Of a stretch of 64,000 bases of DNA, positions 2,946-58,708 are shown piece after piece. Origin of the DNA: Ostreococcus lucimarinus (taxonomy: Eukaryota); assembly GCA_000092065.1 (NCBI GenBank), contig CP000586.1; one strand, written 5' to 3'. Made by a program: the position numbers and the translations under genes. The notes beneath the pieces are model-generated. The model worked only from the letters and a program-made list of their open reading frames with translations, was not told the DNA's origin and did not search any database. Position 1 is the first letter of the stretch. Each line of letters opens with the position of its first letter.

Positions 2946-5258
2946 TCAGGCAAACTCCATAAGAGCTGCGGCGAGATGCGTGAGCTCCTGACCGTACGCG
3001 ACGCGAATCAGTCGCCCGACGACATCTCTTGAATATTCACCCGCCAAGGCGTGTCCTACCGCGAGCAAGAATATTCGCTCGCTCGATCTGATGGGTCTGA
3101 GGCCGAAATGTCGATTGAGCTCCGTCACCATCTCCACGTGTGAGCTGGCGATTATCGGGAAGACCTGAGACGTGCCATTCGTCTCGTTCGAAGCCTGAAA
3201 CACAAAGTGACCTTGCTCTTTTAATTGCCGAGACGCAGTACTGAGCACGGAAATCGTGACTTCGTATGTCTCGAAGTCGTCGGATCGCTCGGAGACCGCG
3301 TGCAAATCGGCGTCGTTCAAGTTCGTAATCAATTCGACGTCGATCATTTTGCGCGCCTCTCTTCGCGGGCGCGTCGCAGCCTGAAGGCGTTTCATGGGTC
3401 TACCACCCATGGCTGGACGCGTCGATCCGCTACCGACGCGCACTGTCATGTCTGATTCATTCAACCTTCTACCGATGAACGTAATGGCGCGTGCGCTCCC
3501 CACCGCGACGGCTACGGCGCTGGAGCCGACGATGCAAGGTGCGACTGCTTGAGTGCTTTGCGTCCCTACGTGCATGAATTTCAATGGACCTTGCACTCGA
3601 GCGAACGTATCTCGTTGATTCCGAGTAAAGACGTCGACTTGAGTAACGCACTCATTGGAGCTAGTCGACTGCAGTTTTTTCAAAAACATCGCGAACTCGC
3701 CGTTCGGTGTGTTAATGAGCTCGATACCTCGCAACCAAACCTCTTGCGCAGAAAAGTCGACGTCAACCGACTTGGACGGCGATGCGTTCACTTCATCGGT
3801 AAAAAGCTCCGCAAATTCGGTGAGTTGACGTTTCATAGACTCTTTCTGTCTGTTGGTTTGCTTAGGCTTGAACGCGACTCGCACGCCGTCCATGTGAGCT
3901 CTCATCTCTTGAACGCTCATGTGCAGCTCTTTGGAGATGTGTGCGACTTCTTGAACGCTTATGCCAAGCGTCGACGAACTTCGCATCTTAAATTCCGACA
4001 AGTCGCTCTTTTGGGTGTCTTTGCCGAGCAAATATTTATCCGTCGCACGACGCCAAGCTTTGAAGAGTAAACCGCGGCGCACCGCGAACGCGTCCAAACC
4101 CGTTGCTACCAAACTCAGGCTCAGTCTACCGCGTAAGTAAGCAGTAACACGCGACATCGCATTCAAGTGATACCGGAGCGCGAGCGGCGCGAGCGTCGCG
4201 ACAACCCATCCTTTGACGCTAAAGTGCATACGTATGCCGCGATATATCGGAGCGATGTTGTCCAGCCCGACATAAAACGTGGGATACAAGATAAAATTCA
4301 GGACACAGCACGCGAGCGCGGCTTTAAACCTTTCCATGGCGCTGATGAGCGCCATAGCCACGAGCGGTGGCGCGACGAGTAACGTCACAATTTGAGCCGG
4401 GTCAAAGCTGTGCCCAGAGTATTTATAACCGACGATGTTCAACGTAACCGCGGGATGACGCATCACCGACTTGACGACGTGTCGTATGAGAATACCAGCG
4501 TCTTCAAAGTCGTGCATTGGTCGACCGTGCACGTCTATACGGAAGAAACCAATCAAAATGACGTAATCGATAATGGTGGCGAGTGGCAAGTATCGCGTGT
4601 ACAGCCCCTTCAGGAACAACGATGGATCTTGAGTATCGTTGAGTGTTACGTGCGCCACTCCCTGCACGCGCACGCCTCTACACATAAGATAATTTTCGAG
4701 CGTTAACGCCACCATGAAGTAAATCCACATGTAAAACCGGCGCACGTTCAAACCGTGTCCTGGAGACATCCCTAACACGTACCACAAAATCGCGCTGGAG
4801 ACGCGTCGCACCGCGCGCTCGAAGAGGCCCGCCTTTTCGCCGCGCGGCGCTCGGTTTCGTCTTCGATTATCGCGCTCTAAATATTGCAGCACGGCAGCCG
4901 GTTTTATGAACCGTCGCGCCTCGCCCGTCGCGTCTTCCTCCGTCGATCCTCCGTCGTTCGACGACGCGTCCCCTCTTTCCTTTTGTACCCGTTCGCGTTC
5001 GCGTCGTCTGCGCGTCGTCGCGCTCCCATCTCGTTTCTTCTTCGTAGCCTTCGTCGACGACCGCGGCGACGGTGACCGCGACTTAAGCGACGTCGACGCT
5101 CGCGTCGTTCGTCTTGTCCGCATCACTCGCGCATCGTCCGTACCGTCGTCGATAACGTCACCGACGACGTTTACGCAGTCCACGTCGTCCAAGTCCGCGC
5201 CCGCCTCGCGCGGCGCCGTCCCGCGCCTGGTGCGCGACCTCGACCGCGTCGCAGGCAT
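2946..5258 (-). CDS. Multi-pass membrane protein with large C-terminal soluble domain, unknown family
   Basis: Track ORF 2946..6014 runs antisense through the MDH gene at its 5' end. The first plausible ATG outside MDH is at 5258 ([10 protein letters not shown]...). It encodes a basic low-complexity N-terminus, then about 6 hydrophobic helices ([91 protein letters not shown]), then ~400 aa of mixed-composition soluble sequence. No family motif recognised. Confidence 0.6.
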
Positions 5259-10013: not shown

Positions 10014-10640
10014 CTAGTCTTTTTCTTCCCACCAAGAGCACAAACCTAAACCGTCTTCGTTGATATCCGCGATGACGAGCATGGGTGCGAACGCGGCGTC
10101 GCCTCCATCTCGCGGCGCGGCGCCGCTCTCCCGGGTGAGACTCGCCAGTTCCTCCGCCGTCTTTGGCGATTCGGGAAAGCGCACGGCGACGACTTTAAAG
10201 CGAAACCGCTCGCCCACCTTCATCTCCATCAATTCGCCATCGTAGTCCCACATCCAGACCTTGGAGTCATCGTCGTACTCACTCGGCGCCTGCATGTTCG
10301 TCGGGGGCACGAATATATCTTTGAAGAACCCAATCGACACGTGCGCCCCGTGCGCGTCGGCGCTCAGCAACGTTCCCTCGATCACCTCTCCCGCGAACGG
10401 CTTGAAGAGCACCACTTTGAACGTCACCTCGAAGCACACGCACCCTTCGCCCGCCAACACGGTCCCTCCAGAGATATTTGTGATGGAATACAGCGTCACG
10501 CACAACCCCCCGCACTCTGCGAGCACCTTATCGACGTACAACGACTCCAACTCTTGCGTCACCGCCTCGAGCGTGCTCTTGCCCAAGTTCACCGGCGCGA
10601 TTTTCACCGCGCCGTCGCTCAGGGCGACGATCTGAAACAT
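10014..10640 (-). CDS. RPC25: RNA polymerase III subunit RPC25/RPC8 (Rpb7-like)
   Basis: ATG at 10640, 208 aa. The Rpb7-type N-terminal domain is MFQIVALSDGAVKIAPVNL...GLCVTLYSI...FKVVLFKPFAGEVIEG. The S1-like part is GAHVSIGFFKDIFVP...KVWMWDY...ERFRFKVV. The C-terminal GLGLCSWW is characteristic of the Pol III paralogue. Confidence 0.85.
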   Translation of the reverse strand: MFQIVALSDGAVKIAPVNLGKSTLEAVTQELESLYVDKVLAECGGLCVTLYSITNISGGTVLAGEGCVCFEVTFKVVLFKPFAGEVIEGTLLSADAHGAHVSIGFFKDIFVPPTNMQAPSEYDDDSKVWMWDYDGELMEMKVGERFRFKVVAVRFPESPKTAEELASLTRESGAAPRDGGDAAFAPMLVIADINEDGLGLCSWWEEKD

Positions 10641-10774
10641 CGCGGTTGCTCGCGTTCGTTCGCGGCGGCCTTTGAATCACCTCGTCCTCCCCGAGCGCGC
10701 CGATCGGTCCGCACCGCGCCGCACCGCGGGCGCGCCGTCCGTCGGTTCGGCACGCCGCCGCCTCGCGTTCGTCC

Positions 10775-10862
10775 TCGCGTCGCGTCGGCGCGTTCGAGGT
10801 CGCGTCGCGTCGGCGCGGTCGTCCTCGCGTCGCGTCGGCGCGGTCGACCTCGCGTCGCGTCG
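10775..10862. repeat. Tandem 25-nt repeat (~3.5 copies) in the RPC25/cyclase divergent intergenic region
   Basis: The core TCGCGTCGCGTCGGCGCGG recurs at 10775, 10800, 10825 and 10850 with an exact 25-nt period. Confidence 0.8.
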
Positions 10863-11216
10863 TTCGCCGTCGTCGTCTCGCCCGCGTCGGCGTCGCGGTG
10901 TGCCATCCAACCGCGACGGGCGCCGACGCGCCGATGCGCCGATGCGCGCGACGACGGCCATCGCAATCGAACGCGAATGCGACTGCGTCAGAAGACGTCG
11001 GTGCGCGCGACGTCCCGTCGGACGGGACGCGCGACGCGTGGGATGGCGCCGACGCGACGACGCGGACGCCGACGCGGCGCGGGCGACGACGCGCGCGACG
11101 ACGACGCGGATGGGTGCGATTTCAGTCGACGGTTGGCGCGAGGCGCGACGACGACGACGAAATTGAAGACGAACGCGGTGACGAATGCGCGACGACGACG
11201 CGCGCGTGGACGCGGT

Positions 11217-14200
11217 ATGGCGTGGAGGGTGGTAGCGGTGATAACGTGCGCGACGTCGTGGACGTGGGCGACGGTGTCGGCGAACGCCGTGACGTTGATC
11301 GGCGCCGGCGCGTCCTTTCCGGCGAGCGTGTACGGAGAGGCGATGAGCGCGTACGCGCAGGCGACGGCGAACGTGACGGTGACGTATAACTCATTTGGAA
11401 GTGGAAGTGGATTGTGTCGAATACAAAACGCCAGCGTGGAGTGTACGGATAGTAAAGGCGTGGACGAGGTAGATTTCGCGTGCAGTGACGCGTTGTTGAA
11501 TGATACGGCGTACGCGGCGTACCCCGATTTACAGATGTACCCCGTCATCGCAGGAGCGGTGGCGTTGGTGTACAATCTCCCAGACTCTACGTATAGCGGC
11601 ACGGCGACGGTGCTTAAATTCCTTAAATTCGACGCCAACGCCTTGTTGGGGGTGTTTTTGGGAAATATCACGCGTTGGAACGACGCCGCGATAACGGCGT
11701 TGAATCCGACGATGACGCTTCCGAACGAGTTGATCAAAATAGTGGTGCGTCAAGACAGTTCTGGGACGACGGAGGCTTGGACAAGTGCTTTATCGACGAT
11801 GAATGCATCTTTTGCGAGCGGGGTGGGGACGTCAAAGCTACCCGACTGGTCCGCGGTGTTGTCGAGTTACGTGACGAGATCTCAAGGGATCGGTGTCACG
11901 TCCTACGTCAAGGCGACGAATTACTCGTTGGGCTATGCCGTTTTGGCTGACGCAAACGCGGTGAACGCATCCATCGCTGGTTACGTTCACGCAGGCACCT
12001 CAACAGCGGTGCTCCCAAACTCTGCGTCGATTTTGCAAGCCGTGAAGACGCGAGGATTGCAATTTGGCAACAACGGCGACAACCCGGTGCGCCTGACGGC
12101 CACCATCGCTCCGGTGCTCACGAATGCTTTAGCTTGGCCGTTTACGACGTACTCGTACGTCGTATTGCGGACTGGTATGGTTGGCTTCACGGAGAGCGAT
12201 CGATTACGAGCCGGGGCGTCTTGTGAAAACGTGAAGCAGACAGTGGCGTTCTGGAACTGGTTTCTCACGAGCGCACAATCGTCGCGAATCGCCGAACAAC
12301 ATGGCTTTGCTGCGATGCACGACGAAATAGGCGCGCTTGTGTCTGCAAGACTCATCGCAGATGTCTATTGTCAAGGGACTCGCGTCGCGGCTGTGACAAC
12401 ATCAACCACTGTACAGGCTATACAGGTCGGAGTCACTGCTCCAGTCACACTCAATAGGCTTCTGTACTCGTTACGCGCCCTGTACGAAGCGTACAATTCG
12501 AGCTCAACGCTCGCCATTAGAGAACTGACCACTGCGGAGGGCGCACTGGCAAATATCCTTGCCGATAACGGTATGGCGATTGGGATTGATTTGGTTGGCA
12601 CTCCTCTCGCCGCTCTATCAAGGCTACCGTTGTTCTCGATTGAGGCACGAATGGGACTGAATAAAGGTGTTCTTCAATTAGGAGCGACAGGGACGACTCT
12701 GGCGCTCGACTCTGTGGCCGTCGCGGCAATTTTAAGCGGCGACGCCACGACGTGGGGGCATCCCGAAATAGTGCGCTTGAACACCTTTTTAAACGGGGTA
12801 ACGGCACCAATCGTCTTGGCTGGCATTCTCGATCCCGAAGCAAATGCATTCTATCGCACTTACCTTTCACAACTGGTCACTGCAAACGCTTCTTTTACGT
12901 TGGCTACACCGAGCTTTCGTGGGTTGTCATATTCTGAAGTCGCTGCTTTTGTTGTTGAAACTCCAAGCTCGATCGCTTTTCTTCCTGGAGACGTAGTGAA
13001 TGCTTTTAAGCCTTATCTGTCGTCGTCGAGCGCGTTGAGTAACCTCGCGGCTACCCAAATGGATGTGTATTACAAACCAGTCAATAGCGGCGCAGAGTGT
13101 GGGGGGGCAATGCGCCAGGCGCTCAAATCCATGCTCAGCATGTTAGAATGGATGGCTTCCGACACCGATGTACAAGGTATTATTACAGAAGCTGGTGTGA
13201 CGCCATCGTTTGCCTCATCACCGGCTGTGCTGCAGACATTTTTATCGAATGTGCGAAGCGTGACGTGCAACGGCGTCTCCATTCTGAATCCACAAAATGC
13301 GCAGTCGTCGGCTGCGTTGAGTGTGAGTCCACTGATAATGGCCCTATCTGTTGGCCTTGGGTTGTTGACGTTCGCGATGTTCGCATTCTTTGGAGGGGCA
13401 CTGCTGAAAAGTTTATTTGTCCAGACAATTTTGAATCAATACAAGCGCTCGCATCCTCCAACCGATGCGGAAGTCACAATCGTCGTCACAGACGTCCAAG
13501 CTTCGACGCAGCTTTGGCAAAAAGCTTCGGTTCACATGAATCGGGCTCTTGCAATACACGACAAAATAATGCGGGCGGCGATTCATCAAACATTTGGTTA
13601 TGAGGTTTTGACGGAAGGAGACAGTTTTGTCATCGCGTTCCACTCTGCAGGAGATGCGCTCAAGTTCGCGATGCTGGTTCAAGAGCGCATGCAAAACTAC
13701 GCCTGGGACTCACCGCTCATTAGAGTGTGTAATGAAGTCTACGACGCGTACGACGCAGAAATCTTCGAGCAAGCTACACAAGGTCGCAACTTTAAGGCAA
13801 AGGAACTTTTACTCAACGCCGTTTCGAGTCGTAGAGTGATTCAAGAAGACACCATGTACGACGAAGGCGACGTGAGTACTCATGCTGGTAGAGGACAAAT
13901 GAATGCGTTTAGAGTTCCTCTCGGGGCGAAGGCTAGTCCCTTGAGTGAAATTCCTAAGATTCACGGTCTTCGCGTACGTATCGGCATGCATACCGGATTC
14001 TGTCAGAGCAGAACGCATCCCACGACGCGACGACGAGAATACTACAAGGGGGCCGTGACGATTGCCAGCGCCGTCTCCGATTGTGCCACTGGTGGTCAGA
14101 CTGTGATTTCAGGGGAAACAATGGCGGCGATACTAGGTGAGATCAAAGAAACGTCCCGAGCTTTCCATGCGCTTCACATGGGACGCCATCAAATGGGGTT

Positions 14201-16226
14201 GAACGCCAAAGAGCTGGATTTGACGGAGGCTGTCGACGAGAGAACCGTGCAAGTTGACGGCAAGGTTGGGCTGGACGACTCGTCAGCGCCTACTGACGAC
14301 GTCACGTTTGCGCTGACCACGGATAGCACAAGACTAAGATGGCGTGCGTCCGATTCTGAAACATCGACAGAGGAAGGCTCGTTGGAAGTGAACCCGGCGT
14401 ACCGCTACGCGCAAAACGCGAAAGTCTCAATCATAAAGAAGGTGGCTTACGATAAAATACACCAGACGAGTCTATTCCAGTCCGAGCTGGTGCAAGCCGT
14501 GCCGAAGTCGCTTGCAACTCGTTTGGCGTTATTCTCTAATCTGCGCACTGTGCGTCAATTGGAGCCATCTTATTATGATTCGCCAGGACTGAACGATATG
14601 AAAGTCACCATCGTTTTCACGTACATCGAAGGTTTGAAGGAACTCAGCGTGGCATTAAAGGACGTGATGGAAGACTCCGTGGGTCTTCTAAATGCGGCTG
14701 TGCGCGCCACGCTACCAGTTTTTAACGGTTACGAGTCTAGAGAATCAAATGGCGAATTTTTGCTCGCTTTCCACTCGCCCAATGATGCGTACAAATGGGC
14801 TCTTCTTGCTCAAAGCGCGTTCATGAAGCTCGACTGGCCGAAAAAACTGTTGACGCATCGGAGCGCGAGACGCATGCGCAATGGAAGACGCGACGTATTC
14901 TTTGGACTCCGCGTGGGGATGGGTGTATGTTCTGGTAAGTGTGCCGACATCAGACCATGTATCCGCACCGGACGCTCCGAGTATTTCGGTGCAATCTTGA
15001 ATTTTGCGTCGAGGGTTGCACGCAGCGCCAAAGGTGGGCAAATTTTAACAGATTATGAAACCTTGAAATCGGCCATTCAAAACGATTATGTGGTTGAATT
15101 TTGTCACGATCTAGGAATGTACCAATTTAAGGGCATCGACAACACCGTACGAGTCATTCAAGTCTCCGACGCGTCGCTGATGATGCGTTCTTTTGAGGAA
15201 ATTGACGCAATCCAAGTCGCACCGCCGGTTGGATTGGATGAAGATCGCGATTTAAGGTCGCAAACACGGAGTGACGATCGTTCAAGTGTATGTATTTTGT
15301 TGTGTACGGCTAAATCACCACTGATAAAGATTGTGCAGTCGTTGGTGCGAGCCATTCGTAAAGAGATACAAGTCGTCAGTGCGCAGAGGATCGACGACGT
15401 CGTCAGTCAATTAAGACATCGTAATTCAGCTGGCCTCATTCATAACCACATGGTGATTGTTTCTGATGAGATCGAACGTTTAGACGTCGTGGATGCTTGC
15501 CGACAAATCCGCAGAAAACTCAACTTGTTTATGCAGCCGAGGCTCGCAGTGTACGCTTCACTCCTAAACGATCTCGACGCTGAACAGCTCGGCATTGACT
15601 GCCTTTTGCCTACTTTGGATGCACCTTTTGACGCTAGTTCATCCCGCAATTCATATGTCGATGGTGATAGTGATTCGGAGTACGAAGAAGATATGATTGC
15701 GTTCAAACAAGTGGTTGAATCTTTCCTTTTGGGAGAAGCGAGCGAGAGTGGCTTGGGCGTCTTGCAAAGGCTGTCAGAATCAGGCGGTATTGCATCAGCA
15801 CCGACTCTTGAAGCGAATCAAAACGATGAGAAACTACCAACGTTCAAACAAGCGCCCGTGCCAACTCATAACAAGCCGCTTTTGAGCATGTCCAACATTG
15901 GGATGTTGACTACGACGCTTGAGGCGGTTTGCGCAAGAGCTTTCGCAATCGACGTGAATCAACAGCTCATATTTGCTACGCGCCGCGCCGTGAAGGCTGG
16001 TGTGGGCGCTTCTTCGGGACCACTTCCGCCATCAGACTGGCTATCTCGAGTAAGTACTGTCGCTGCGAAGGCGCAAAGGGGTATACTCCGTCAGTCTTGG
16101 GTTGAAACGATAAAAGGCAGTTGGCTCGACGAAAATTCAGAGGACGAATACGTCGACGCCGTGCACAAACCGATTCGTCTCGGCGATGATTTCGCAGTTG
16201 TTTTAGTGACTTTGCAAAGTCGTTGA
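11217..16226 (+). CDS. Receptor-type class III nucleotide cyclase: signal peptide, PstS-like ectodomain(s), one TM helix, two cyclase homology domains, receiver-like tail
   Basis: Track ORF 10341..16226 is antisense to RPC25 at its 5' end. The convincing start is ATG 11217 (MAWRVVAVITCATSWTWATVSANA, signal-peptide-like). A ~310-aa PstS/phosphate-binding-protein-like domain follows (GAGASFPASVY, YNSFGSGSG, DFACSD, LVYNLP, FLGNITRWND, VRQDSSGTTEAWT, LGYAV). Next comes a second degenerate PBP-like module (ILSGDATTWGHPEIVRLN). The ectodomain carries many NxS/T sequons. There is one TM helix (LIMALSVGLGLLTFAMFAFFGGALL, ~13327-13405). CHD1 spans ~13470-14130 (VTIVVTDVQAST, GDSFVIAF, RIGMHTG). CHD2 spans ~14600-15165 (VTIVFTYIEG, NGEFLLAF, RVGMGVCSG, FGAILNFASRVA). 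A ~350-aa C-terminal tail completes the protein. Confidence 0.85.
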   Translation: MAWRVVAVITCATSWTWATVSANAVTLIGAGASFPASVYGEAMSAYAQATANVTVTYNSFGSGSGLCRIQNASVECTDSKGVDEVDFACSDALLNDTAYAAYPDLQMYPVIAGAVALVYNLPDSTYSGTATVLKFLKFDANALLGVFLGNITRWNDAAITALNPTMTLPNELIKIVVRQDSSGTTEAWTSALSTMNASFASGVGTSKLPDWSAVLSSYVTRSQGIGVTSYVKATNYSLGYAVLADANAVNASIAGYVHAGTSTAVLPNSASILQAVKTRGLQFGNNGDNPVRLTATIAPVLTNALAWPFTTYSYVVLRTGMVGFTESDRLRAGASCENVKQTVAFWNWFLTSAQSSRIAEQHGFAAMHDEIGALVSARLIADVYCQGTRVAAVTTSTTVQAIQVGVTAPVTLNRLLYSLRALYEAYNSSSTLAIRELTTAEGALANILADNGMAIGIDLVGTPLAALSRLPLFSIEARMGLNKGVLQLGATGTTLALDSVAVAAILSGDATTWGHPEIVRLNTFLNGVTAPIVLAGILDPEANAFYRTYLSQLVTANASFTLATPSFRGLSYSEVAAFVVETPSSIAFLPGDVVNAFKPYLSSSSALSNLAATQMDVYYKPVNSGAECGGAMRQALKSMLSMLEWMASDTDVQGIITEAGVTPSFASSPAVLQTFLSNVRSVTCNGVSILNPQNAQSSAALSVSPLIMALSVGLGLLTFAMFAFFGGALLKSLFVQTILNQYKRSHPPTDAEVTIVVTDVQASTQLWQKASVHMNRALAIHDKIMRAAIHQTFGYEVLTEGDSFVIAFHSAGDALKFAMLVQERMQNYAWDSPLIRVCNEVYDAYDAEIFEQATQGRNFKAKELLLNAVSSRRVIQEDTMYDEGDVSTHAGRGQMNAFRVPLGAKASPLSEIPKIHGLRVRIGMHTGFCQSRTHPTTRRREYYKGAVTIASAVSDCATGGQTVISGETMAAILGEIKETSRAFHALHMGRHQMGLNAKELDLTEAVDERTVQVDGKVGLDDSSAPTDDVTFALTTDSTRLRWRASDSETSTEEGSLEVNPAYRYAQNAKVSIIKKVAYDKIHQTSLFQSELVQAVPKSLATRLALFSNLRTVRQLEPSYYDSPGLNDMKVTIVFTYIEGLKELSVALKDVMEDSVGLLNAAVRATLPVFNGYESRESNGEFLLAFHSPNDAYKWALLAQSAFMKLDWPKKLLTHRSARRMRNGRRDVFFGLRVGMGVCSGKCADIRPCIRTGRSEYFGAILNFASRVARSAKGGQILTDYETLKSAIQNDYVVEFCHDLGMYQFKGIDNTVRVIQVSDASLMMRSFEEIDAIQVAPPVGLDEDRDLRSQTRSDDRSSVCILLCTAKSPLIKIVQSLVRAIRKEIQVVSAQRIDDVVSQLRHRNSAGLIHNHMVIVSDEIERLDVVDACRQIRRKLNLFMQPRLAVYASLLNDLDAEQLGIDCLLPTLDAPFDASSSRNSYVDGDSDSEYEEDMIAFKQVVESFLLGEASESGLGVLQRLSESGGIASAPTLEANQNDEKLPTFKQAPVPTHNKPLLSMSNIGMLTTTLEAVCARAFAIDVNQQLIFATRRAVKAGVGASSGPLPPSDWLSRVSTVAAKAQRGILRQSWVETIKGSWLDENSEDEYVDAVHKPIRLGDDFAVVLVTLQSR

Positions 16227-20890: not shown

Positions 20891-23569
20891 ATGGCGATGA
20901 TACCGGTCGACGACGCCCTGGCGATCGCGCTCGATGTCGTCGCGCGTGGCGCGCGCGCGACGACGACGAAGACTCGAGTGGAGCGCAGCGCGAACCGCGT
21001 GTCGGCCGAGGACGTGCGCGCGACGACGCCGCATCCCGCGTTCGCGGCGAGCGTCATGGATGGGTACGCGCTGAACGCGCGCGCGAGCGCGGCGGCGATG
21101 CGGGCGAACGACGACGGTGGGGCGACGCGACGATGGGAGTTTGAGATTGTCGACGACGAGGCGTCGCGGGCGGGACCGGCGAAGGCGACGCGCGACGACG
21201 AAGGACGCGAATTTGGCGCCATGGAGTGTGCGTACGTCACCACGGGCGCGGTGTTACCTCGAGGATGTGATTGCGTCGTGCCGGAGGAAGCGTGCGAGGT
21301 GGTGAGGGAGGGATCTGGACGCGCGCGCGCGGACTCGAGCGACGTCGTTTCGGGAAAGTGGACGCGCGCCGTCGGGAGCGACGTGCGAGGCCGAGGGGAA
21401 GTTTTGATCGCGAAAGGTGAACGGTTGAGCGCGTATGATGTTGGCGTGCTAAAGTACGCTCGGGATGTCGTTGAGACGTACGAGCCTCCGCGCGTTCGCG
21501 TTTTGAGCACGGGCGATGAGTTGGCGGCGAGTGCGAGCGACGTCGCCGTTCGCGGATGCGTCGTGGACACAAACGGTCCGATGTTGGAAGCGCTGTGCGG
21601 TGAAGAGGGCGCAGAAGTAATATCGCGCGATATAGTGCGAGACGACGAGGCTGCGACGAGGGCAGCGTTCGAAATGGCCGTCGCCGACGCTTCGTGCGAC
21701 GCGCTCATCACCTCTGGCGGCGCCTCGGTGGGTGACAGAGATTTCGTGAAACAGACGATCGAAGGTCTCGGTGGGAAGATTTACTTTAGACGTTTGGCGA
21801 TGAAACCGGGGAAGCCGACGATGTTCGCGACGATTCCTAGAGCGACGGGTCCGCCACTTCTCGTATTCGCACTGCCGGGCAATCCTGTCAGCGCGGCGGT
21901 GACGTTTACGCTCATCGTCGCGCCGTGCATTCGCGCGCTCGGTGGAGTTCGCGAATCTGGACTTCGGCGCATCCATTGCGTATTAGATGAGACGTTACGT
22001 CTCGACCCAGAGCGCGCTGAGTATCATCGCGTCACACTAGATTGGACGCGGGGGAACTTACCCGTCGCGCGCTCCACTGGCGCGCAAATCAGTAGCCGCT
22101 TACTGTCCATGCGAAACGCGGACGCGCTAATCGAGCTTCCGCGAGGACCAGGGGTGGTGGAAAAAGGCGCCATCGCGAGTGCGCTGTTGATTTCAGATGT
22201 AAGACACGCGAAAGGTGCGAACATGGAGAAAATACAATGGCCCAAAAAGTCACGCGGCGACGAGAGTCGGCGTTCGAACGAGGCGCTCGACTCCATCGTG
22301 ACCGTGCTCGACGCCGAGGGATCCGTCCGGGATTTGAAACGCGTCGTAGGGCTTGAAGAAGACGCGAGGCGTCATTGCCGTGCCGCCGGAGATTGCGTGG
22401 ACGCGCTTAATGAACTGAGGATGTATTCAGATGGCGATTCCACGCACGTTGCGGTGACAGACGCGCAGTCGCCAGGATTACGAAGAGGAATCGCAACAAC
22501 TTTGGAACGACTGCGCGTCGTCACGCCGATTGGCGACGTTATCACTAAACGCGCGTATGCCCGCGTGGGTTTAGTTGGGAATCCGTCCGATGCATACGGA
22601 GGCAAGTGTGTGGCGTTTACCATTTCAAACTTTTTCGCTGAAGCGTCGCTACGCCGAACGCCATCATCGAAGCGCGTAACGTTCGCGCCGGGCCCGTACG
22701 ACGGAAACGCGTTCGATTCATTCGACGCCTTGTCGACGCACGTATCCCAACACGGTGTCGATGGTGGTGTGCGTCTACTTAAGTCGCTATGTTGCAACCT
22801 CATGCGATATTGCGAGTCGACAAAGCAGAGAATCGATACGTCATGTGGCTTTGAGATGTCATACACGTCGAACATCCCGAAACAAACCGGCTTGAGCGGT
22901 TCGAGCGCCATCGTCATCGCCGCGATGAGATGTCTTCTCGAAATGTATAGAATCAACATTTCGTTGGATGATCAGACCGAGCTGGCTTTACGCGTCGAGC
23001 GCGATGTCGGCATCAACGCCGGACCGATGGATAGAGTCGCGCAGGTGTATGAAGGCGCGGTGTTTATGGATTTCACAAAACCGCGCGCGTCAACAGCATG
23101 CGGTTGGCGCATTCACGGTGAATACACGCGCGTGGAGACGGATGAATTGCCTCCTTTGTATCTCGTGTGGGCCAAAGACAACGAGAGTGAGAGCTCTCGA
23201 ATTCACGCCGACGTTCGGCGTCGATGGGACGCTGGAGACGCGGATGTCGCAACGTCGATGTCGCGCCTCGCGTCGCTCGCCGACGACGTATTCAAAGCTA
23301 TGGCAACGCGACAAATCAACGTCGAAGAACTCAAAACGTCGATCGACACGAACTTTGATATTCGTCGAGCGCTTTTCGGTGATCAAGCGATCGGCGCGTT
23401 GAATGTAACACTCGTCTCGGTGTGTCGCGAACGCGCGGGTTGTGCGGCAAAGTTTGCCGGCAGCGGTGGCGCTTGCGTCGTCGTTTGCGAAAACGACAGA
23501 GCGCGCGCTTTAAAGGAAGCGTGCGACGCGCACGGGTTCGAAGTCGAACGCGTCGTCGTGCGAAAGTAA
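20891..23569 (+). CDS. Single ORF fusing a complete MoeA/Cnx1E-type molybdopterin molybdenumtransferase domain to a glucuronokinase-like GHMP kinase
   Basis: ATG at 20891, 892 aa, no stop. The N-terminal ~440 aa are MoeA-like (MIPVDDALAI, VMDGYAL, STGDEL, VDTNGPML, SGGASVGDRDFVKQ, MKPGKPTMFA, LPGNPVSAAVTF, plus a MoeA C-terminal domain ending ...ASALLISDV). A ~95-aa linker follows. The last ~355 aa are glucuronokinase-like (RAYARVGLVGNPSDAYGGKCVAFTISNF, GGVRLLKSLC, PKQTGLSGSSAIVIAAMRCLLEMY, NAGPMDRVAQVYEG, PPLYLVWA, FDIRRALFGD, KFAGSGGACVV). Confidence 0.85.
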   Translation: MAMIPVDDALAIALDVVARGARATTTKTRVERSANRVSAEDVRATTPHPAFAASVMDGYALNARASAAAMRANDDGGATRRWEFEIVDDEASRAGPAKATRDDEGREFGAMECAYVTTGAVLPRGCDCVVPEEACEVVREGSGRARADSSDVVSGKWTRAVGSDVRGRGEVLIAKGERLSAYDVGVLKYARDVVETYEPPRVRVLSTGDELAASASDVAVRGCVVDTNGPMLEALCGEEGAEVISRDIVRDDEAATRAAFEMAVADASCDALITSGGASVGDRDFVKQTIEGLGGKIYFRRLAMKPGKPTMFATIPRATGPPLLVFALPGNPVSAAVTFTLIVAPCIRALGGVRESGLRRIHCVLDETLRLDPERAEYHRVTLDWTRGNLPVARSTGAQISSRLLSMRNADALIELPRGPGVVEKGAIASALLISDVRHAKGANMEKIQWPKKSRGDESRRSNEALDSIVTVLDAEGSVRDLKRVVGLEEDARRHCRAAGDCVDALNELRMYSDGDSTHVAVTDAQSPGLRRGIATTLERLRVVTPIGDVITKRAYARVGLVGNPSDAYGGKCVAFTISNFFAEASLRRTPSSKRVTFAPGPYDGNAFDSFDALSTHVSQHGVDGGVRLLKSLCCNLMRYCESTKQRIDTSCGFEMSYTSNIPKQTGLSGSSAIVIAAMRCLLEMYRINISLDDQTELALRVERDVGINAGPMDRVAQVYEGAVFMDFTKPRASTACGWRIHGEYTRVETDELPPLYLVWAKDNESESSRIHADVRRRWDAGDADVATSMSRLASLADDVFKAMATRQINVEELKTSIDTNFDIRRALFGDQAIGALNVTLVSVCRERAGCAAKFAGSGGACVVVCENDRARALKEACDAHGFEVERVVVRK

Positions 23570-46702: not shown

Positions 46703-49700
46703 TTAAATTTGAGGCAAAGCGATGTCGGCGATGTCATCACTGGAGACAAAGCGGATGTTGGCCCAATCACCGGCAGCAGCGGTAGACTTCGTGCGCTCAA
46801 GCGCGGCGATACCCGCATCACCGTCTTCGAGCACGGACGGAGTGGATGCGTTGACATCGAGGCGCTGGCGAGAAATCATAATGATATCACCGATTTGCCA
46901 GTCGCCGGGAGATGGAGCTGGCGTGGAGACGTCTTCTACCCAATAACCGAGACCTAAGACGTCAAGACTGGTGGAATCTTGCACGATCTGCTTAGGATTG
47001 ATTGGTTTTGGTTTCTCCGGTGAGGATTCCTCGGTGTAGACGGGTTTGTAAACAATCATCGTCGTCGCCGTGGCATCGGACTCTGCGTTGGACACCGGCG
47101 TCTCAAGCCGTTTTGGCGCCGAAAGGCAGCAGGAGAGAAAACCCGTCGGGTTTCTGTACGGGGTTTTCTGCACGGGAGCGTGCGACGCCATCGGCATCAC
47201 AGCTTGCGTCGTCGCCGGCGGCATCGGCATCACTGCCGCCGCAACTGGTGAAGGCTTGTCGGCGGGCACGGGTTCCGAAGGTTTTTGTGTGTGAGAGGCG
47301 ACGTAAGTTTCTAGAACGGTTTCATCCGGTTTGTCCGCGAGCATCACTTTGCCCTTCTTGCCGTTTCGCAAGTTTAAAACTTCGTAAGTGCCGGCCCAGT
47401 TCGACCCGTCGCACTTCCCACAGTTTAGCGCACGTACGGCGTCTTTATCGAAACGGAAAATCGAGCCATCGGACGGATAACCGTGTCGCCGAATGTCGAG
47501 AACATTGATGGCGGTGGACGTGCCGAGAATATTGGCGTGAATACCGCCGCCAGAGCGCGCCGTCGAGTTCGCGAGCTTGTGCAAGTCCGTTGATTCCCAT
47601 CGCACACGCACGGCGGACACATCATCCATGATCGACTTGAACGCCCGTCCCCAGCGAACGTTTTCTGTACTGAGCTCTATTTTATGCCACTTTCCATCCG
47701 AACGCAGCGCTTTCGCCGTGAACGGAAGAGCTTCGAACGACGCATCCGTGTGAACGCCGTAAATTCGTGTCCCCACGCTCGCGGCTTCAATCTGAAATTC
47801 AATCTCCAGTTCTTTCCACCACGGACCGACAAGACCGCATTGACCATACCGAATTAAATGCCCGGGTAAGTTCCAACCAGTTTCCGTCTGGCACACGTAG
47901 TTGTCCATCGACAGCGTGAATGTGTACGGCGGAGGTTGGTTGTCATGCGAATACGCCAACAACTCGATGCGATCGCCCGGCTTCCAATCCCCTTCGTGGG
48001 CGTAATCGCAAGGATTCGCGCAACCGACGCCGATGCCCGACTCGTGCTGAAACACTATGACGCTCCCACGTCGTTCGCCCGCGCTCGTGTCGTTGGGGAT
48101 CGCGAATGAGGCGCCATCGCCGCCTTTTATGACGCCCGTCTTCCAGCCTTCGTAACTCGCATCGCCCCAATCTTCAATGCCCGTGATGGCAGAGAGCTGC
48201 GAGCTCTTGAAGCGAAACCACTTCCCTTTAGGCTCTGGCTCTGTTTTGCCGGGCATGACACCGCCGGGGTAATCGATGCTCACGACATCAAGGTGTGGAT
48301 CGACGAGCTTTCTTCGTTGTCGAGGGAACACAAACGCATCGGGCTTCAGCTTTACGACTTTCTTCTCACCCGACGCCGTTTTGTACGTCCGCTCTTTCGG
48401 GGGCGGTGGTTTTTTGTGAGGATTGTACACGTAAAACTCGTCACGCTCCTGCGCGTTTGGCCCACTGATGGATTTGTCGCCCCATTTTGATGCGTCATCA
48501 ACGCACTCTTCGCCGCGGTTGCCTTCGTCCTTGGTTGGCCACTTGTTAGACCCCCAACCAACCCCGAGCAAGTCAGGATCACCCTCGAGTAAGCCGACGT
48601 GAACACCGCCGCCGTACTTTTCACTGTAGCACGGCACCCCGGGGGCGCCTTTGTCAGGCACACGAACATTAAACTTAAAGTGAGTGATAGGTTCGTACTT
48701 TCTGTCGCGATGCAGCATGAGAGCTCCGAAATGTTGCTTGTTTTTATCATCCGTGCACAGTCCACTTCGAAAAGAAGGTTGACCTTCACCTTGACTGTTA
48801 ATGCCCTCGTTGTCGCGGCAGTTGTATGTCTGACAACAACCACCCGCTTGCAGGAGCGTTCGATTATCGATGAAGACGCCGATTGGAGTGTACGGACGCC
48901 CGTTGATCAACTCGGGGTCTGATCCGGTGGGATGCTTCAGCTTGATCTCGAACATGAGCCACATCGTACGCTTGCCTCCTCGGTAATTTTGCTCTTTCGG
49001 GTAAATTCCACTTTGGCCAGGGAATATTCGCTCGATTGGCTCGTCGTTGACGCCGCCCGTCATGAAGTGGGCGTCGTCGTCTTTGGAGTAGTCTTCAACA
49101 AACTTGATCGAATCGAATTTGCTCGGATCCATGAATCGCACACCCTTCGGCAAGCCACGGTACGCGATGAGTTCGATGGGCTCGCCGACGAGCCAGTCGC
49201 CCGGCTGCGCGCTCTCGACGGGGTGATAACAGCCCACGCCCATGCCGTTTGGACCGCCAAAAACGACGATCGCCGAACGCTTTTCTTGTCGATACACACA
49301 GAAAGTCGCGCCTTTCCCCGATTTGACGCTAAAATTTTCTGTTTTGTACGCCTTCAGATCCTTATTCGCCCACTCGTGTCCGATGACGCGCGTGAGCTCA
49401 TCCATGTCGAAGCGAAAGAATCTCCCATCCGCCGGCTTGGATTTGTCCGGATACTCCAACGACGTGACGTGTACGTACTTCCGATCGGGAACTTCATCAG
49501 GAAACACGACAACATCACCCTCATCAACTTTTGAAAGCCCTTGGTCGACCGTCGATCCGTTCGGTTTCACGTCTGGAATCGTCCCGAGCGCCGGCGCCCT
49601 CCCGTCCCCCGCGAGTCCAAAGCTCAACGTTTTCGACAACTGCCTGAGCATCGACGGTTGCTTTTTAAACACGTGCACGTTATGTTCCACCACCACCACC

Positions 49701-50077
49701 GTCGTTTTCAGCGCCGCAGCCTTCATTCGCGCCGCCACCGTGCCGTCCAGCAGCGCTCCCGGTTTCAACCGCTTCGCCGCATCCACGAAGCGTTCGACGA
49801 GCGCGTACAGCCCCGTGTTGCTCGAGCACGTCGACGCGAAGTCCTCCAGCGTCACCCGTCGATCGCACGGTTCGGTGTGATTGATCGCGATCCACGCTTC
49901 GATCGCCGCTTTCTCGTACGTCCGTCCCGTCTTCGCGACGACGACGGGATTCTTCATCACTCGCAGCGTGAGCGCGCACACGTACGCGTCCGGCGCCGCG
50001 GCGTGGAACGCGGGATCGGCGTACATCGCGGCGTCGACGTCGATGTCGCGAGGGAACGGGTTCGCGCGTCGGCCCAT
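46703..50077 (-). CDS. Large U-box E3 ubiquitin-ligase-like protein with unrecognised internal repeats
   Basis: ATG at 50077, 1124 aa. The N-terminal U-box is PDAYVCALTLRVMKNPVVVAKTGRTYEKAAIEAWIAINHTEPCDRRVTL. About 120-aa repeats occur at aa ~190-310 and ~581-710, with a partial third copy at ~858-915. They share G(R/K/S)xFRF..., GxGASF/ATF, S(A/V)IVVF..., G(M/I)GVGC, GDWxxG(E/D)xIEL(I/L)AY. No family recognised beyond the U-box. Confidence 0.8.
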   Translation of the reverse strand: MGRRANPFPRDIDVDAAMYADPAFHAAAPDAYVCALTLRVMKNPVVVAKTGRTYEKAAIEAWIAINHTEPCDRRVTLEDFASTCSSNTGLYALVERFVDAAKRLKPGALLDGTVAARMKAAALKTTVVVVEHNVHVFKKQPSMLRQLSKTLSFGLAGDGRAPALGTIPDVKPNGSTVDQGLSKVDEGDVVVFPDEVPDRKYVHVTSLEYPDKSKPADGRFFRFDMDELTRVIGHEWANKDLKAYKTENFSVKSGKGATFCVYRQEKRSAIVVFGGPNGMGVGCYHPVESAQPGDWLVGEPIELIAYRGLPKGVRFMDPSKFDSIKFVEDYSKDDDAHFMTGGVNDEPIERIFPGQSGIYPKEQNYRGGKRTMWLMFEIKLKHPTGSDPELINGRPYTPIGVFIDNRTLLQAGGCCQTYNCRDNEGINSQGEGQPSFRSGLCTDDKNKQHFGALMLHRDRKYEPITHFKFNVRVPDKGAPGVPCYSEKYGGGVHVGLLEGDPDLLGVGWGSNKWPTKDEGNRGEECVDDASKWGDKSISGPNAQERDEFYVYNPHKKPPPPKERTYKTASGEKKVVKLKPDAFVFPRQRRKLVDPHLDVVSIDYPGGVMPGKTEPEPKGKWFRFKSSQLSAITGIEDWGDASYEGWKTGVIKGGDGASFAIPNDTSAGERRGSVIVFQHESGIGVGCANPCDYAHEGDWKPGDRIELLAYSHDNQPPPYTFTLSMDNYVCQTETGWNLPGHLIRYGQCGLVGPWWKELEIEFQIEAASVGTRIYGVHTDASFEALPFTAKALRSDGKWHKIELSTENVRWGRAFKSIMDDVSAVRVRWESTDLHKLANSTARSGGGIHANILGTSTAINVLDIRRHGYPSDGSIFRFDKDAVRALNCGKCDGSNWAGTYEVLNLRNGKKGKVMLADKPDETVLETYVASHTQKPSEPVPADKPSPVAAAVMPMPPATTQAVMPMASHAPVQKTPYRNPTGFLSCCLSAPKRLETPVSNAESDATATTMIVYKPVYTEESSPEKPKPINPKQIVQDSTSLDVLGLGYWVEDVSTPAPSPGDWQIGDIIMISRQRLDVNASTPSVLEDGDAGIAALERTKSTAAAGDWANIRFVSSDDIADIALPQI

Positions 50078-50526
50078 GGTCGAGCGCGTCGCGGCGTCGC
50101 GGCGTCGCGGCGTCGCGGCGTCGCGCCACGCTCGCGATTCTCCGGCTCGCCGCGCCGCGCTCCGGCGACTCGGCGTTTCGGCGATCCGCGTCGCGCGCGC
50201 GGCGACGGACCGCGCCCCGCCCGCCCGTCGAGGCGCGCGAACGCCATGGAATACGCGATGGGTTTAAAAAAAGTACAGTACGCGATATCAAATGATACCG
50301 CGGTAAGGTTGTTGGACTTTGTGGAACATCCCAACCCCAACGAACGAGGATGTTGGCGCGTTGACGCGGCGCGCGCGCGGCATCGCTCGACGCCGAGCGA
50401 CGCGCGACGCTCGCGCGACTCTCTCGCGCGGCGAAACGCGTCGATCTAAAAAGTTTGCGCGGCGCGAGACCGCGCGCGCGCGAACGCGGCGGGACCGCGC
50501 GACGGACGCGCGCGAAAACGTCAATC

Positions 50527-50591
50527 GCGTCGCGCATCCCGGAGACGGTTCGCGGCGTCGCGCATCCCGGAGACGGTTCGCGGCGTCGCGC
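50527..50591. repeat. Tandem 28-nt repeat (2.3 copies)
   Basis: GCGTCGCGCATCCCGGAGACGGTTCGCG occurs at 50527-50554 and 50555-50582, with a partial third copy. It lies in the U-box/Lon-N divergent intergenic region. Confidence 0.9.
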
Positions 50592-50687
50592 GCGTGTTTT
50601 CGGCTCGCGACGCGAGCCGAACCCGCGACCCGTGTATTACACAATTTTGAATCAATAATAATGTTTACGACGTTTCACGAGCGCGTG

Positions 50688-50729
50688 CGTCCGTCCCGTC
50701 TTCGCGACGACGACGGGATTCTTCATCAC
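50688..50729. repeat. Exact 42-nt copy of the U-box coding core (second copy at 49919..49960)
   Basis: CGTCCGTCCCGTCTTCGCGACGACGACGGGATTCTTCATCAC is identical at 49919-49960 and at 50688-50729. At 49919-49960 it lies inside the U-box gene and encodes VMKNPVVVAKTGRT on the minus strand. The copy at 50688-50729 ends 34 nt before the Lon-N gene ATG. Confidence 0.95.
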
Positions 50730-50763
50730 GCCGACGTTCGGCGTCGCGCCAGACGCCCGCGCG

Positions 50764-51690
50764 ATGCGCGCGTCGTCGCGCGCGTCGGCGACGCGCGTCG
50801 CGCGCGTCGCGCGCGTCGACGCGAGGCGGCCGCGGGCTCGAGCGCGCGCGCGCGCGCGCGACGGTGCCGGCGACGACGACGACGCATCCGCGCTGGACAT
50901 GGACGCGCTGCGAGCGCGCGTCCGCGCGCTGGCGAAGCGCGAAGAAGCGCTGGAAACGCTGCGCATCGTCGTGCTGGACGCGAGCGTGCCGAAACAAGTG
51001 CTGCCGCTGGAGTTCGACGGCGCGAACGTCGAGAGGACGCTCAACGCGGGGACGGCGCTCGGGCGAGACGCGCGCGTGGGCGATCGATTCGGGATGCTCG
51101 GGCAAGCGCCGAGCAACGGACAGATACTGCCGAACGGAGTGGAGGTGACGGTGACGCGAGCGATGGTTCGGCCGAACGGGGGGGAGAGTTTGATCGAACT
51201 CACGGCGTCGCGGCGGTTTAAAATCGTGGGGGCTCCGTTCGAGGACGAGGCGAACGGATCGGCGCCGAGCGCGAGGGTGTGCTGGATTCCCGATACCGAA
51301 GGCGCGGGCGAGCAAACCGTCGCGGGCGGCGTGGAGGAGCCGGGCGCGGTGGATCCCGCCGAGTGCGACGCCGAGTGCGCGGCGCTCGCCGCGGAGCTTC
51401 CCGCGCTCGTCGACGAATGGCGGGCGCTGGTGATTTCGAGAAAGCGCGAGCGTCAGCCCGATCAGTTGAAGTTGATCTTATCGCAAATCGGCGACATCCC
51501 TGGGTCGAACCGACCGGCCGAGCTCTCGCTTTGGGTCGCCGCGCTCATCAACCCGATTCCCGCCCTCGGCGTGGCGTACGAGATTCGTCCGGCGATCCTG
51601 TGCGCGCCGACGACGGGTCACATGGTTCGCATCGCGTCCCAAGGCATCAAACTTTCCATCAACAGTCTGCGCGACGGGCCTCAAATTTGA
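50764..51690 (+). CDS. Lon protease N-terminal (LON substrate-binding/PUA-like) domain protein, probably organellar
   Basis: ATG at 50764, 308 aa. An Arg/Ala-rich presequence comes first. Then [50 protein letters not shown], and the C-terminal helical part [47 protein letters not shown]. This is typical of stand-alone LON_N domain proteins. Confidence 0.6.
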
Positions 51691-58297: not shown

Positions 58298-58708
58298 TTA
58301 GGTTTGCGCCTTGGTCATGACTTGCGGCGTCGCGGCGCGCATGACTTCGGCGAGGATCGCGACGGCTTCGTCCGGGGACGACGAAGAGAAGCGAAAAGCG
58401 TCGCGCGCGGGATACTTCTTACCGAGCTCGACGTTGCGCACGTTCGTCCGTCTACCATGGATCAACCGAGAGCGCGGTGTCGTGAGTTGATGCGCGTCCG
58501 GCGTGAAGATCATTCCCGCCGACCGAACGGTGTAATCGTGAAACTTGGCCGTCTCGTCGTCGACGTGCGCCGCGAACCCGTCGTGTCCGCCGAGACAAAA
58601 GCACCACGGCTCGACTCGCGTCGCGTCGCGCCGCCGCGCGATCGATCGCTCGATCGCCCGAAGACGCGCGTCGCCGTACCGCGCGGCGCGTCGCGACGTC
58701 GCGACGCG
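58298..58708 (-). CDS. Coding-like segment with no own upstream ATG, in frame with the preceding ORF across a single TGA
   Basis: Minus-strand translation after the TGA at 58711-58709 reads RVATSRRAARYGDARLRAIERSIARRRDATRVEPWCFCLGGHDGFAAHVDDETAKFHDYTVRSAGMIFTPDAHQLTTPRSRLIHGRRTNVRNVELGKKYPARDAFRFSSSSPDEAVAILAEVMRAATPQVMTKAQT*. The composition is mixed and the third positions are strongly G/C-biased along the whole segment. The only ATG is at 58513. Family not recognised. Confidence 0.4.
   Translation of the reverse strand, partial: RVATSRRAARYGDARLRAIERSIARRRDATRVEPWCFCLGGHDGFAAHVDDETAKFHDYTVRSAGMIFTPDAHQLTTPRSRLIHGRRTNVRNVELGKKYPARDAFRFSSSSPDEAVAILAEVMRAATPQVMTKAQT

Follow-up and report, generated by a model that had tools for sequence, protein, structure and literature searches.

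How does an exact piece of a protein-coding exon come to lie directly in front of another gene? This question is raised by a locus within the first 64 kb of a reference-type, approximately 820-kb chromosome of Ostreococcus lucimarinus (this 64-kb stretch, analyzed here as a whole, is called the window in the following). The 42-nt sequence CGTCCGTCCCGTCTTCGCGACGACGACGGGATTCTTCATCAC occurs exactly twice in the window, both times on the plus strand. One copy (the coding copy) lies within a minus-strand gene for a U-box protein, the other (the upstream copy) shortly before the start codon of a plus-strand gene for a protein with a Lon N-terminal domain (Lon-N). An earlier reading of the window, which was made from its sequence without database searches and is called the sequence-only reading below, had treated both genes as divergent neighbors whose transcripts might pair in trans via the repeat, and had named the relic of a partial duplication or a gene-conversion patch as the alternative. 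The analysis of the window and of 42 related loci essentially favors this alternative: the upstream copy is probably a by-product of repair or rearrangement that has no dedicated regulatory function.

The Repeat and Its Occurrence in Natural Populations

Apart from its two exact occurrences, the 42-mer has no further match with three or fewer mismatches within the window, none of 100 dinucleotide shuffles of the window gave any match to it, and among the dispersed repeats that are neither tandem nor of low complexity it is the longest exact one in the 64 kb. The coding copy belongs to that part of the U-box open reading frame (ORF) which matches the Pfam U-box model (residues 28-97; 30.1 bits at a cut-off of 21.4), and the upstream copy ends 34 nt before the Lon-N ATG. 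The exact repeat and both of these positions had already been described in the sequence-only reading, as had the unrelated flanks and the longer match of 46 nt that includes a single mismatch (CGTA vs. CGTG), all of which was confirmed by exact search and flank comparison. The additional match stems from a CGTG tetranucleotide to the left of the upstream copy, which looks like a slippage duplication of GCGT and is polymorphic in the population (CGTG/CGCG/AGCG). When the upstream copy is read on the minus strand, it indeed still gives the described peptide (...GVMKNPVVVAKTGRT); the stop codon thought to follow, however, only comes after 11 more codons (HALVKRRKHYY). The 42-mer also holds an internal inverted repeat (TCCCGTC...GACGGGA).

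For comparison, the 42 related loci were fetched from public assemblies by look-up of the proteins of the window and of their cluster mates, and one metagenome scan with the first 30 nt of the 42-mer was added to the survey. Forty of the loci are contigs of O. lucimarinus that come from numerous projects and assemblers and show 99.3-99.9% identity to the window in shared flanks, and the remaining two (L041 and L042) carry U-box homologs from relatives. The upstream copy was found at the same place in 27 loci, or 28 sequences when the window is counted, and at high frequency across many samples. Two of its 42 positions segregate in these 28 sequences (50718, with A in 27 and T in one; 50719, with T in 10 and C in 18). 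Perfect 42/42 identity to the U-box copy is seen in 10 of them, including the window, and 41/42 identity in the other 18. The 53 nt to the left of the upstream copy contain five segregating sites, the 34 nt to the right (50730-50763) contain none, and the coding copy showed no variation in 10 population loci. Seven metagenome stretches with the 42-mer core were recovered by the scan, and these showed the U-box context, the upstream context and a hybrid of both, with no third family and no other species among them.

Since 27 independent wild contigs carry the upstream copy, it is no assembly artefact, a concern that had been voiced in the sequence-only reading. That the repeat is due to chance or to an artefact can be dismissed for practical purposes: apart from the GC-rich and repeat-rich background of the region nothing speaks for it, and it is at odds with the outcome of the shuffles and with the segregating single-nucleotide polymorphisms (SNPs) in contigs from differing projects and assemblers.

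The direction of copying is indicated by a comparison with other species. The amino-acid motif encoded by the 42-mer in the U-box gene is conserved in all 10 detectable homologs of this rare U-box family, although only 31-33 of the 42 nt are identical in the core DNA of the two closest relatives, whose proteins are 64-66% identical. In the loci of these relatives the U-box core was found only once, and the neighbors of the U-box gene also differ (GST, zf-MYND). The upstream copy, in turn, is identical at 41-42 of 42 positions to the U-box allele of O. lucimarinus itself. Judged from these sequences, the coding copy is the original: the U-box exon was the source and the intergenic site the recipient, in a transfer that took place within the lineage of O. 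lucimarinus.

Haplotypes Around the Upstream Copy

Contrary to the sequence-only reading, U-box and Lon-N are not divergent neighbors in most wild O. lucimarinus haplotypes. Instead, a plus-strand giant gene of approximately 17 kb lies between the two copies of the 42-mer. Its product comprises 5,5xx residues including a C-terminal tail and gives weak Pfam matches to Ephrin_rec_like and TNFR Cys-rich repeats. At least three deeply divergent alleles of this gene (C, G, and X) occur in addition to its presence or absence, and in the window it is deleted. The resulting haplotype classes are listed in Table 1, with C being the commonest one. The upstream copy is present in haplotype C and in the deletion haplotypes A (the window), B and D, and haplotype B has retained it even though the 5′ part of the U-box gene including the coding copy is lost. 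It is absent from haplotypes E and G: E has neither the AT-rich element found downstream of the giant gene nor the 42-mer, and in G unrelated 31 nt replace the spacer and the 42-mer of C, with homology to the window resuming at 50727 (CAC). Because it is found in C, A, B and D and missing from E and G, the 42-mer is confined to the C lineage together with the deletion haplotypes derived from it, where it occupies the extreme right edge of the variable segment. As for the conservation across strains and species that the sequence-only reading had asked about, the copy recurs in the 27 wild contigs and is missing from E, from G and from the loci of relatives. At the right edge, the C and G alleles of the cassette cannot be aligned to the left of 50727 and are about 99.5% identical to the right of it, and every haplotype class regains homology at the left end of a 21-mer (TCACGCCGACGTTCGGCGTCG) that follows the copy (50727-50730), with E keeping 18 nt, G 20 nt and C 21 nt of the 21-mer match. 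Altogether, at least seven structural arrangements or junction types cluster within about 130 nt in one O. lucimarinus population.

The junctions themselves point to the type of process involved. The O. lucimarinus CCE9901 reference genome carries a deletion allele with a 20-nt filler, the first 7 nt of which complete an 11-nt reverse-complement copy (50611-50621) of 50599-50609, 3 nt away, which is the signature of snap-back synthesis. The same junction recurs in an independent wild contig. Since this filler is located only about 55 nt to the left of the upstream copy (50615-50634 vs. 50688), repair with templated synthesis does operate at the locus. The junction of haplotype D shows TAC microhomology at most 5 nt from the breakpoint of A, and that of B shows 1-nt homology. 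A template search for the remaining 13 nt of the A filler and for the 30-nt spacer at 50658-50687 yielded only 8-mers in the flanks and nothing of 13 nt or more within the window, and a corresponding scan across the loci returned self matches only and was uninformative. The upstream copy itself overlaps the 21-mer by the microhomology TCAC, of which G keeps CAC.

The 42-mer is not the only coding-derived piece in front of Lon-N. Besides it, the window contains three dispersed, high-complexity exact repeats of at least 17 nt, and two of these three have one copy within 50641-50746, for which the chance of falling into one stretch of about 130 nt is estimated at about 6e-5. These are the 21-mer and an AT-rich 17-mer (ACAATTTTGAATCAATA) from within the AT-rich element that follows the giant gene. 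Together with the 42-mer they form three patches that account for 76 of the 129 nt before Lon-N, each of them identical to coding DNA of the same chromosome arm. As a 16/17 match persists in the divergent G allele, the 17-mer is older. With the 42-mer being C-specific and the 17-mer and the 21-mer also occurring in haplotypes G and E, different ages of the patches, and hence several events at one hotspot, are implied. The AT-rich element may serve as the promoter of Lon-N, and a palindrome at the point where the haplotypes converge (predicted to form a hairpin with a 7-bp stem) might represent either a fragile site or a hairpin in the leader.

A Hybrid Junction Between Both Copies

One further arrangement, haplotype H, joins the contexts of both copies. 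It is found in L033, the first 4,305 nt of the 69.9-kb Joint Genome Institute (JGI) contig Ga0255753_1000251, where the 3′ end of a C-type giant gene and the AT-rich element are followed by ...CACGAGCG, the 42-mer and TCGCAGCGTGAGC..., i.e., the 5′ coding flank of U-box; the string at the junction (region of positions 1-127) reads CACGAGCG + 42-mer + TCGCAGCG. The 42-mer thereby has the same left boundary as the upstream copy and runs on into at least 85 nt of the U-box 5′ flank, where the contig ends. A normal U-box copy is located on the same contig at a distance of 17,823 nt from the hybrid junction, and the terminal 127 nt of the contig are equal to its internal copy. For a tandem duplication, such an identity of terminal and internal sequence would be produced by a loop in a k = 127 assembly graph. 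In addition, L038, a contig from a different sample, has base 1 of the 42-mer as its very first position and then continues through the repeat into the 5′ flank of U-box, as would be expected from a convergence of two left contexts at this point.

The position of L033 among the C-type sequences was assessed over 4.1 kb of the giant gene. There, L033 differs from the core C cluster by 9 positions, as compared to 12 and 30 for the ordinary C haplotypes L005 and L016, respectively. With G as outgroup, there are four sites at which L005 and L016 have the outgroup state and L033 and core C share the derived one, and one derived allele is common to L033 and L016. Based on the derived alleles shared with the core C-type sequences, the hybrid is most simply read as having arisen secondarily, when the two 42-mers underwent ectopic recombination or break-induced copying with each other, and the C junction probably does not descend from it. 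Truncated U-box ORFs are predicted for haplotype H, and an exact-sequence look-up of four variants in a protein collection found none of them, so that H has no independent support at the protein level.

Origin of the Upstream Copy

An explanation of the upstream copy has to account for its position at a structural boundary, the microhomology, its presence or absence among haplotypes, its polymorphism, the snap-back filler nearby and the hybrid junction, all of which are observed. The course that we infer would start from a break at the right-hand edge of the C cassette, upon which the broken end would have copied 42 nt of the U-box exon by synthesis primed on a short microhomology. The new copy would then have re-annealed to the recipient via TCAC/CAC beside CGCCGACGTTCGG. 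This would correspond to a microhomology-mediated, synthesis-dependent repair of the templated-insertion or template-switch kind with an enzymology presumably similar to that of DNA polymerase theta (Pol-theta), and the order of these founding events is likewise a reconstruction. Subsequently, the copy drifted, carrying a common SNP today, and was inherited by the deletion derivatives A, B and D. At least once it would have been used for ectopic recombination with the U-box copy, by which the 17.8-kb interval would have been duplicated in tandem (haplotype H).

Several points weigh against this explanation. Both the 42-nt length of the insert and the distance to its template (0.45 kb or more; 17.8 kb in C) exceed what is typical for Pol-theta, the flank-templated inserts of which are mostly shorter than 25 bp and copied a few bases from the junction, with about 3% originating from distant sites (PMC5068794). 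At the left junction of the 42-mer only CG-type microhomology and a 4-nt indel are seen, and none of the 42 loci has a clean "empty site" allele, as both E and G are distinguished from C by further changes besides the 42 nt. The hybrid is represented by one explicit metagenome contig end and one contig start, at contig level only; the nesting of H within the C-type diversity is supported by about five informative sites on the assumption that recombination was rare, and none of the seven metagenome stretches with the 42-mer core showed the reciprocal deletion product. A secondary regulatory effect of the upstream copy may exist as well.

Because of the unusual length and distance, a second route within the same family of repair scars has to be taken seriously, even though we consider it less likely than not: the copy could be the relic of a larger tandem or segmental duplication with its left junction at 49919. 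In this case an H-like arrangement, i.e., a longer partial duplicate of the U-box 5′ end, would have come first and a deletion at the TCAC microhomology would have trimmed it to 42 nt. No unusually long and distant templated insert would then be needed. An arrangement with exactly such a left boundary exists in L033, cassette-sized microhomology deletions are frequent at the locus (A, B, and D), and the 4-nt CGTG present in all 28 C-derived copies is missing from L033. On the other hand, the giant-gene sequence of L033 is nested in the C-type diversity, by which the observed H looks secondary, and the other two patches of coding origin within the 129 nt would be left unexplained. A wider interpretation, in which the roughly 130 nt before Lon-N are a recurrent break-and-rejoin hotspot that repeatedly captures short pieces of transcribed genes, and in which ectopic recombination at the 42-nt piece makes the 17.8-kb cassette expand and contract, appears rather improbable. 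If true, a repair scar would have become a handle for copy-number variation of a gene likely to be involved in cell-surface interactions, for instance with viruses or in mating.

Possible Regulatory Roles

The sequence-only reading had placed its emphasis on a natural antisense function in trans, in which the 5′ leader of Lon-N would hold the 42-mer, pair with the U-box mRNA and thereby couple the expression of both genes. Its geometry is correct. Both copies are on the plus strand, with U-box read from the minus and Lon-N from the plus strand, and a leader spanning 50688-50729 would be complementary to the U-box mRNA. A transcription start at or just before the copy also appears plausible because of a TATA-like motif (AATAATAATG) at about 50656-50665, approximately 23-33 nt before 50688, and the invariance of 50730-50763 in 28 sequences implies that the leader is under some constraint. 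Several observations nevertheless speak against such a function. Haplotypes E and G do without the copy despite having an identical Lon-N protein, B keeps it though the target exon is deleted, and in most wild haplotypes the giant gene parts the two partners. The majority allele pairs at only 41 of 42 positions, so that complementarity is not upheld even where both genes are present, and the SNP density in the copy equals that of its left flank. Neither the numbers of segregating sites nor the absence in E and G nor the loss of the target in B therefore give any sign of constraint on pairing. Furthermore, no copy is located beside the U-box homologs of relatives, the 42-mer is predicted to be bound up in a hairpin of its own within the leader, and the other two of the three patches in this region have the sense orientation of their source genes, which argues against a common antisense logic. 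Finally, genes for Dicer and Argonaute are absent from O. lucimarinus (PMC4014436). An antisense role is thus regarded as very unlikely.

Slightly less improbable, but still doubtful, is an exaptation of the copy as a cis element, be it as a structured hairpin in the 5′ untranslated region (UTR) of Lon-N, as a promoter-proximal element or as part of the 3′ end of the giant gene. The internal inverted repeat, the adjacent palindrome and the high frequency of the copy across samples would fit such a role. The fold does not point to a selected structure, though: the putative 91-nt leader folds at -43.2 kcal/mol, and this is no better than for shuffled sequences (z = -1.0; 34 of 200 shuffles at least as stable). 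Additionally, E and G do without the 42-mer, and the common SNP lies within it while the 34 nt to its right have none.

Features of the Surrounding Chromosome End

The window has a GC content of 59.7% and starts with CCCTAAA telomere repeats (about 35 perfect units followed by degenerate ones, positions 1 to ~300), marking it as a chromosome end. The features discussed here are compiled in Table 1.

TABLE 1 Features of the window and haplotype classes of the variable segment.
Feature or haplotype	Position in the window	Strand	Loci	Description
U-box gene	46703..50077	-		100% identical to O. lucimarinus CCE9901 XP_001418357.1
Coding copy of the 42-mer (source)	49919..49960	-		U-box core codons VMKNPVVVAKTGRT, residues 41-54 of ORF 46703..50077
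Giant gene	deleted between 50614 and 50635	+	L001-L005, L007, L009-L011, L013, L016, L018-L024, L026-L031, L033, L034, L038	Loci in which the gene is seen
A-junction filler AGCCGAACCCGCGACCCGTG	50615..50634	+		20 nt, left by giant-gene deletion in the reference-type haplotype
AT-rich 17-mer ACAATTTTGAATCAATA	50641..50657	+		Exact match to coding 13425-13441
Coding counterpart of the 17-mer	13425..13441	+		In ORF 10341..16226 (PBP-like and guanylate-cyclase domains)
CGTG tetranucleotide	50684..50687	+		Left of the upstream copy; source of the 46-nt match with one mismatch
Upstream copy of the 42-mer (ectopic, non-coding)	50688..50729	+		Right edge of the variable cassette region
21-mer TCACGCCGACGTTCGGCGTCG	50726..50746	+		Exact match to coding 23203-23223
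Coding counterpart of the 21-mer	23203..23223	+		In ORF 20891..23569 (MoeA and GHMP kinase)
Palindrome ACGCCGA-CGT-TCGGCGT	50728..50744	+		Predicted hairpin
Lon-N gene	50764..51690	+		LON_substr_bdg, 35.6 bits (cut-off 28.7)
Haplotype C, right side			L001-5, 7, 9, 10, 16, 18, 20, 22-24, 26-31, 34	Order: U-box(-), intergenic DNA, ~17-kb giant gene(+), AT-rich element, spacer, 42-mer, CGCCGACGTTCGG, Lon-N
Haplotype C, left side			L011, L013, L039, L040
Haplotype A	50614/50635		window, L025	Giant gene deleted, 20-nt filler
Haplotype B	47079 to 375 nt before 50635		L006, L008, L032	Deleted, 1-nt homology
Haplotype D	50275 to near 50637		L012	Joined via TAC
Haplotype E	50729/30		L014 (817-kb strain contig), L015	U-box intergenic DNA fused straight to CGCCGACGTTCGG
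Haplotype G			L019, L021	Deeply divergent giant-gene allele, diverged AT-rich element

The Lon-N ORF clusters with XP_001418142.1, the reference model, which starts at a downstream ATG (50899). The first 45 codons of the 308-residue ORF (50764-50898) are rich in R, A and S and overlap CG-rich tandem repeats; this part could be a transit peptide or a long 5′ UTR. Population variants differ in length by 9 nt (three codons), giving 311 residues. In L017 (4700-5010), genes for Maf1, a DEAD helicase and others are joined to Lon-N at window position 50776, within the CG-rich low complexity just after the ATG. This is either a translocation haplotype or an assembly chimera and was not used as evidence.

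With respect to the U-box gene, the homologs from relatives show an apparent intron with a GTGCG donor (L041, ~5000-5090; L042, ~1290-1375) between the codons for ...FHAAAP and DAY..., where the O. lucimarinus gene is continuous. Three repeats upstream of U-box vary in copy number (50086-50125, 50527-50591 and ~50380-50614 in the window). The GCGTCGCG repeat is present five times in the window, twice in L039 and six times in L012, and this 8-nt repeat falls within the in-frame upstream extension that is used by a U-box gene call of 1144 residues. A 28-nt unit occurs in 2.3 copies in the window and in one copy in L011 and L013, and an intergenic unit of approximately 250 nt is duplicated in L036, L038 and L039. 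One U-box allele (L035, 1-400; MDSW01133718.1) has first ~36 codons (MPDRWPPALEIPRAL...) that resemble the distant homolog P0010; its switch point beside window positions 49961-49965 abuts the 42-mer, and its upstream neighbor is a different gene on the same strand. As this is either an ectopic recombination between paralogs or a chimeric assembly, it was not used as evidence as well.

Two ORFs of the window, those containing the counterparts of the 21-mer and the 17-mer, are unusual fusions. ORF 20891-23569 combines MoeA (molybdopterin) with a GHMP kinase N domain, and ORF 10341-16226 (1961 residues) a PBP-like domain with a guanylate/adenylate cyclase domain. Further downstream, a second indel hotspot is located at about 58616-58652. 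Most wild loci have approximately 330 extra nt there, flanked by a 37-nt duplication of 58616-58652, and past this point their identity to the window falls to 92-97%.

Relation to Known Systems

With the upstream copy explained as a probable repair by-product, an antisense regulation between U-box and Lon-N no longer needs to be postulated. The locus is of interest in itself, as presence or absence and deeply divergent alleles of a Cys-rich surface protein of about 5,500 residues are found within one population. It furthermore provides a natural series of alternative end-joining and ectopic-recombination junctions in a green alga, which should be useful for picoalgal population genomics and for studies on host-virus arms races.

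Among the described systems, templated insertions or filler DNA as known from Pol-theta end joining, from synthesis-dependent microhomology-mediated end joining (SD-MMEJ) and from deletion and transferred-DNA (T-DNA) junctions in plants come closest. The exact 42/42 copy at a structural breakpoint, the joint with 3-4 nt of microhomology, the patchwork of several short copies and the neighboring junction with a classic reverse-complement snap-back insert are in accordance with the hallmarks of such junctions (PMC5068794; PMC4912351; PMC2943611). The locus differs by its 42 nt with a template 0.45-17.8 kb away, where inserts of less than 25 bp from bases near the break are usual, and in that the event is ancient and deduced from population haplotypes, with the enzyme being only presumed in the alga.

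Microhomology-mediated break-induced replication (MMBIR) and fork stalling and template switching (FoSTeS) also stitch short segments from distant loci together via microhomology. The patches described here likewise come from the same chromosome arm, and their site is at the edge of a large copy-number-variable segment. In contrast to one complex event, the patches are of different ages and stem from several events at one hotspot. Non-allelic homologous recombination (NAHR) between low-copy direct repeats is resembled by the two direct repeats that flank a 17.8-kb interval and by the hybrid repeat with one flank from each copy, as expected for a duplication product. A repeat of only 42 bp is very short for this process, however, the joint carries a 4-nt deletion, and the reciprocal deletion was not seen. 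With natural antisense pairs acting in trans, the locus shares the potential for 42 nt of perfect RNA-RNA complementarity between the transcripts of two genes; it departs from them in that this pairing is not kept across haplotypes, the target is gone in some strains, the RNA interference machinery is lacking and transcription of the copy is presumed. Filler DNA or templated insertions and short repeats as substrates of NAHR are therefore already known kinds of sequences, of which the locus described here is a new natural example in a prasinophyte.

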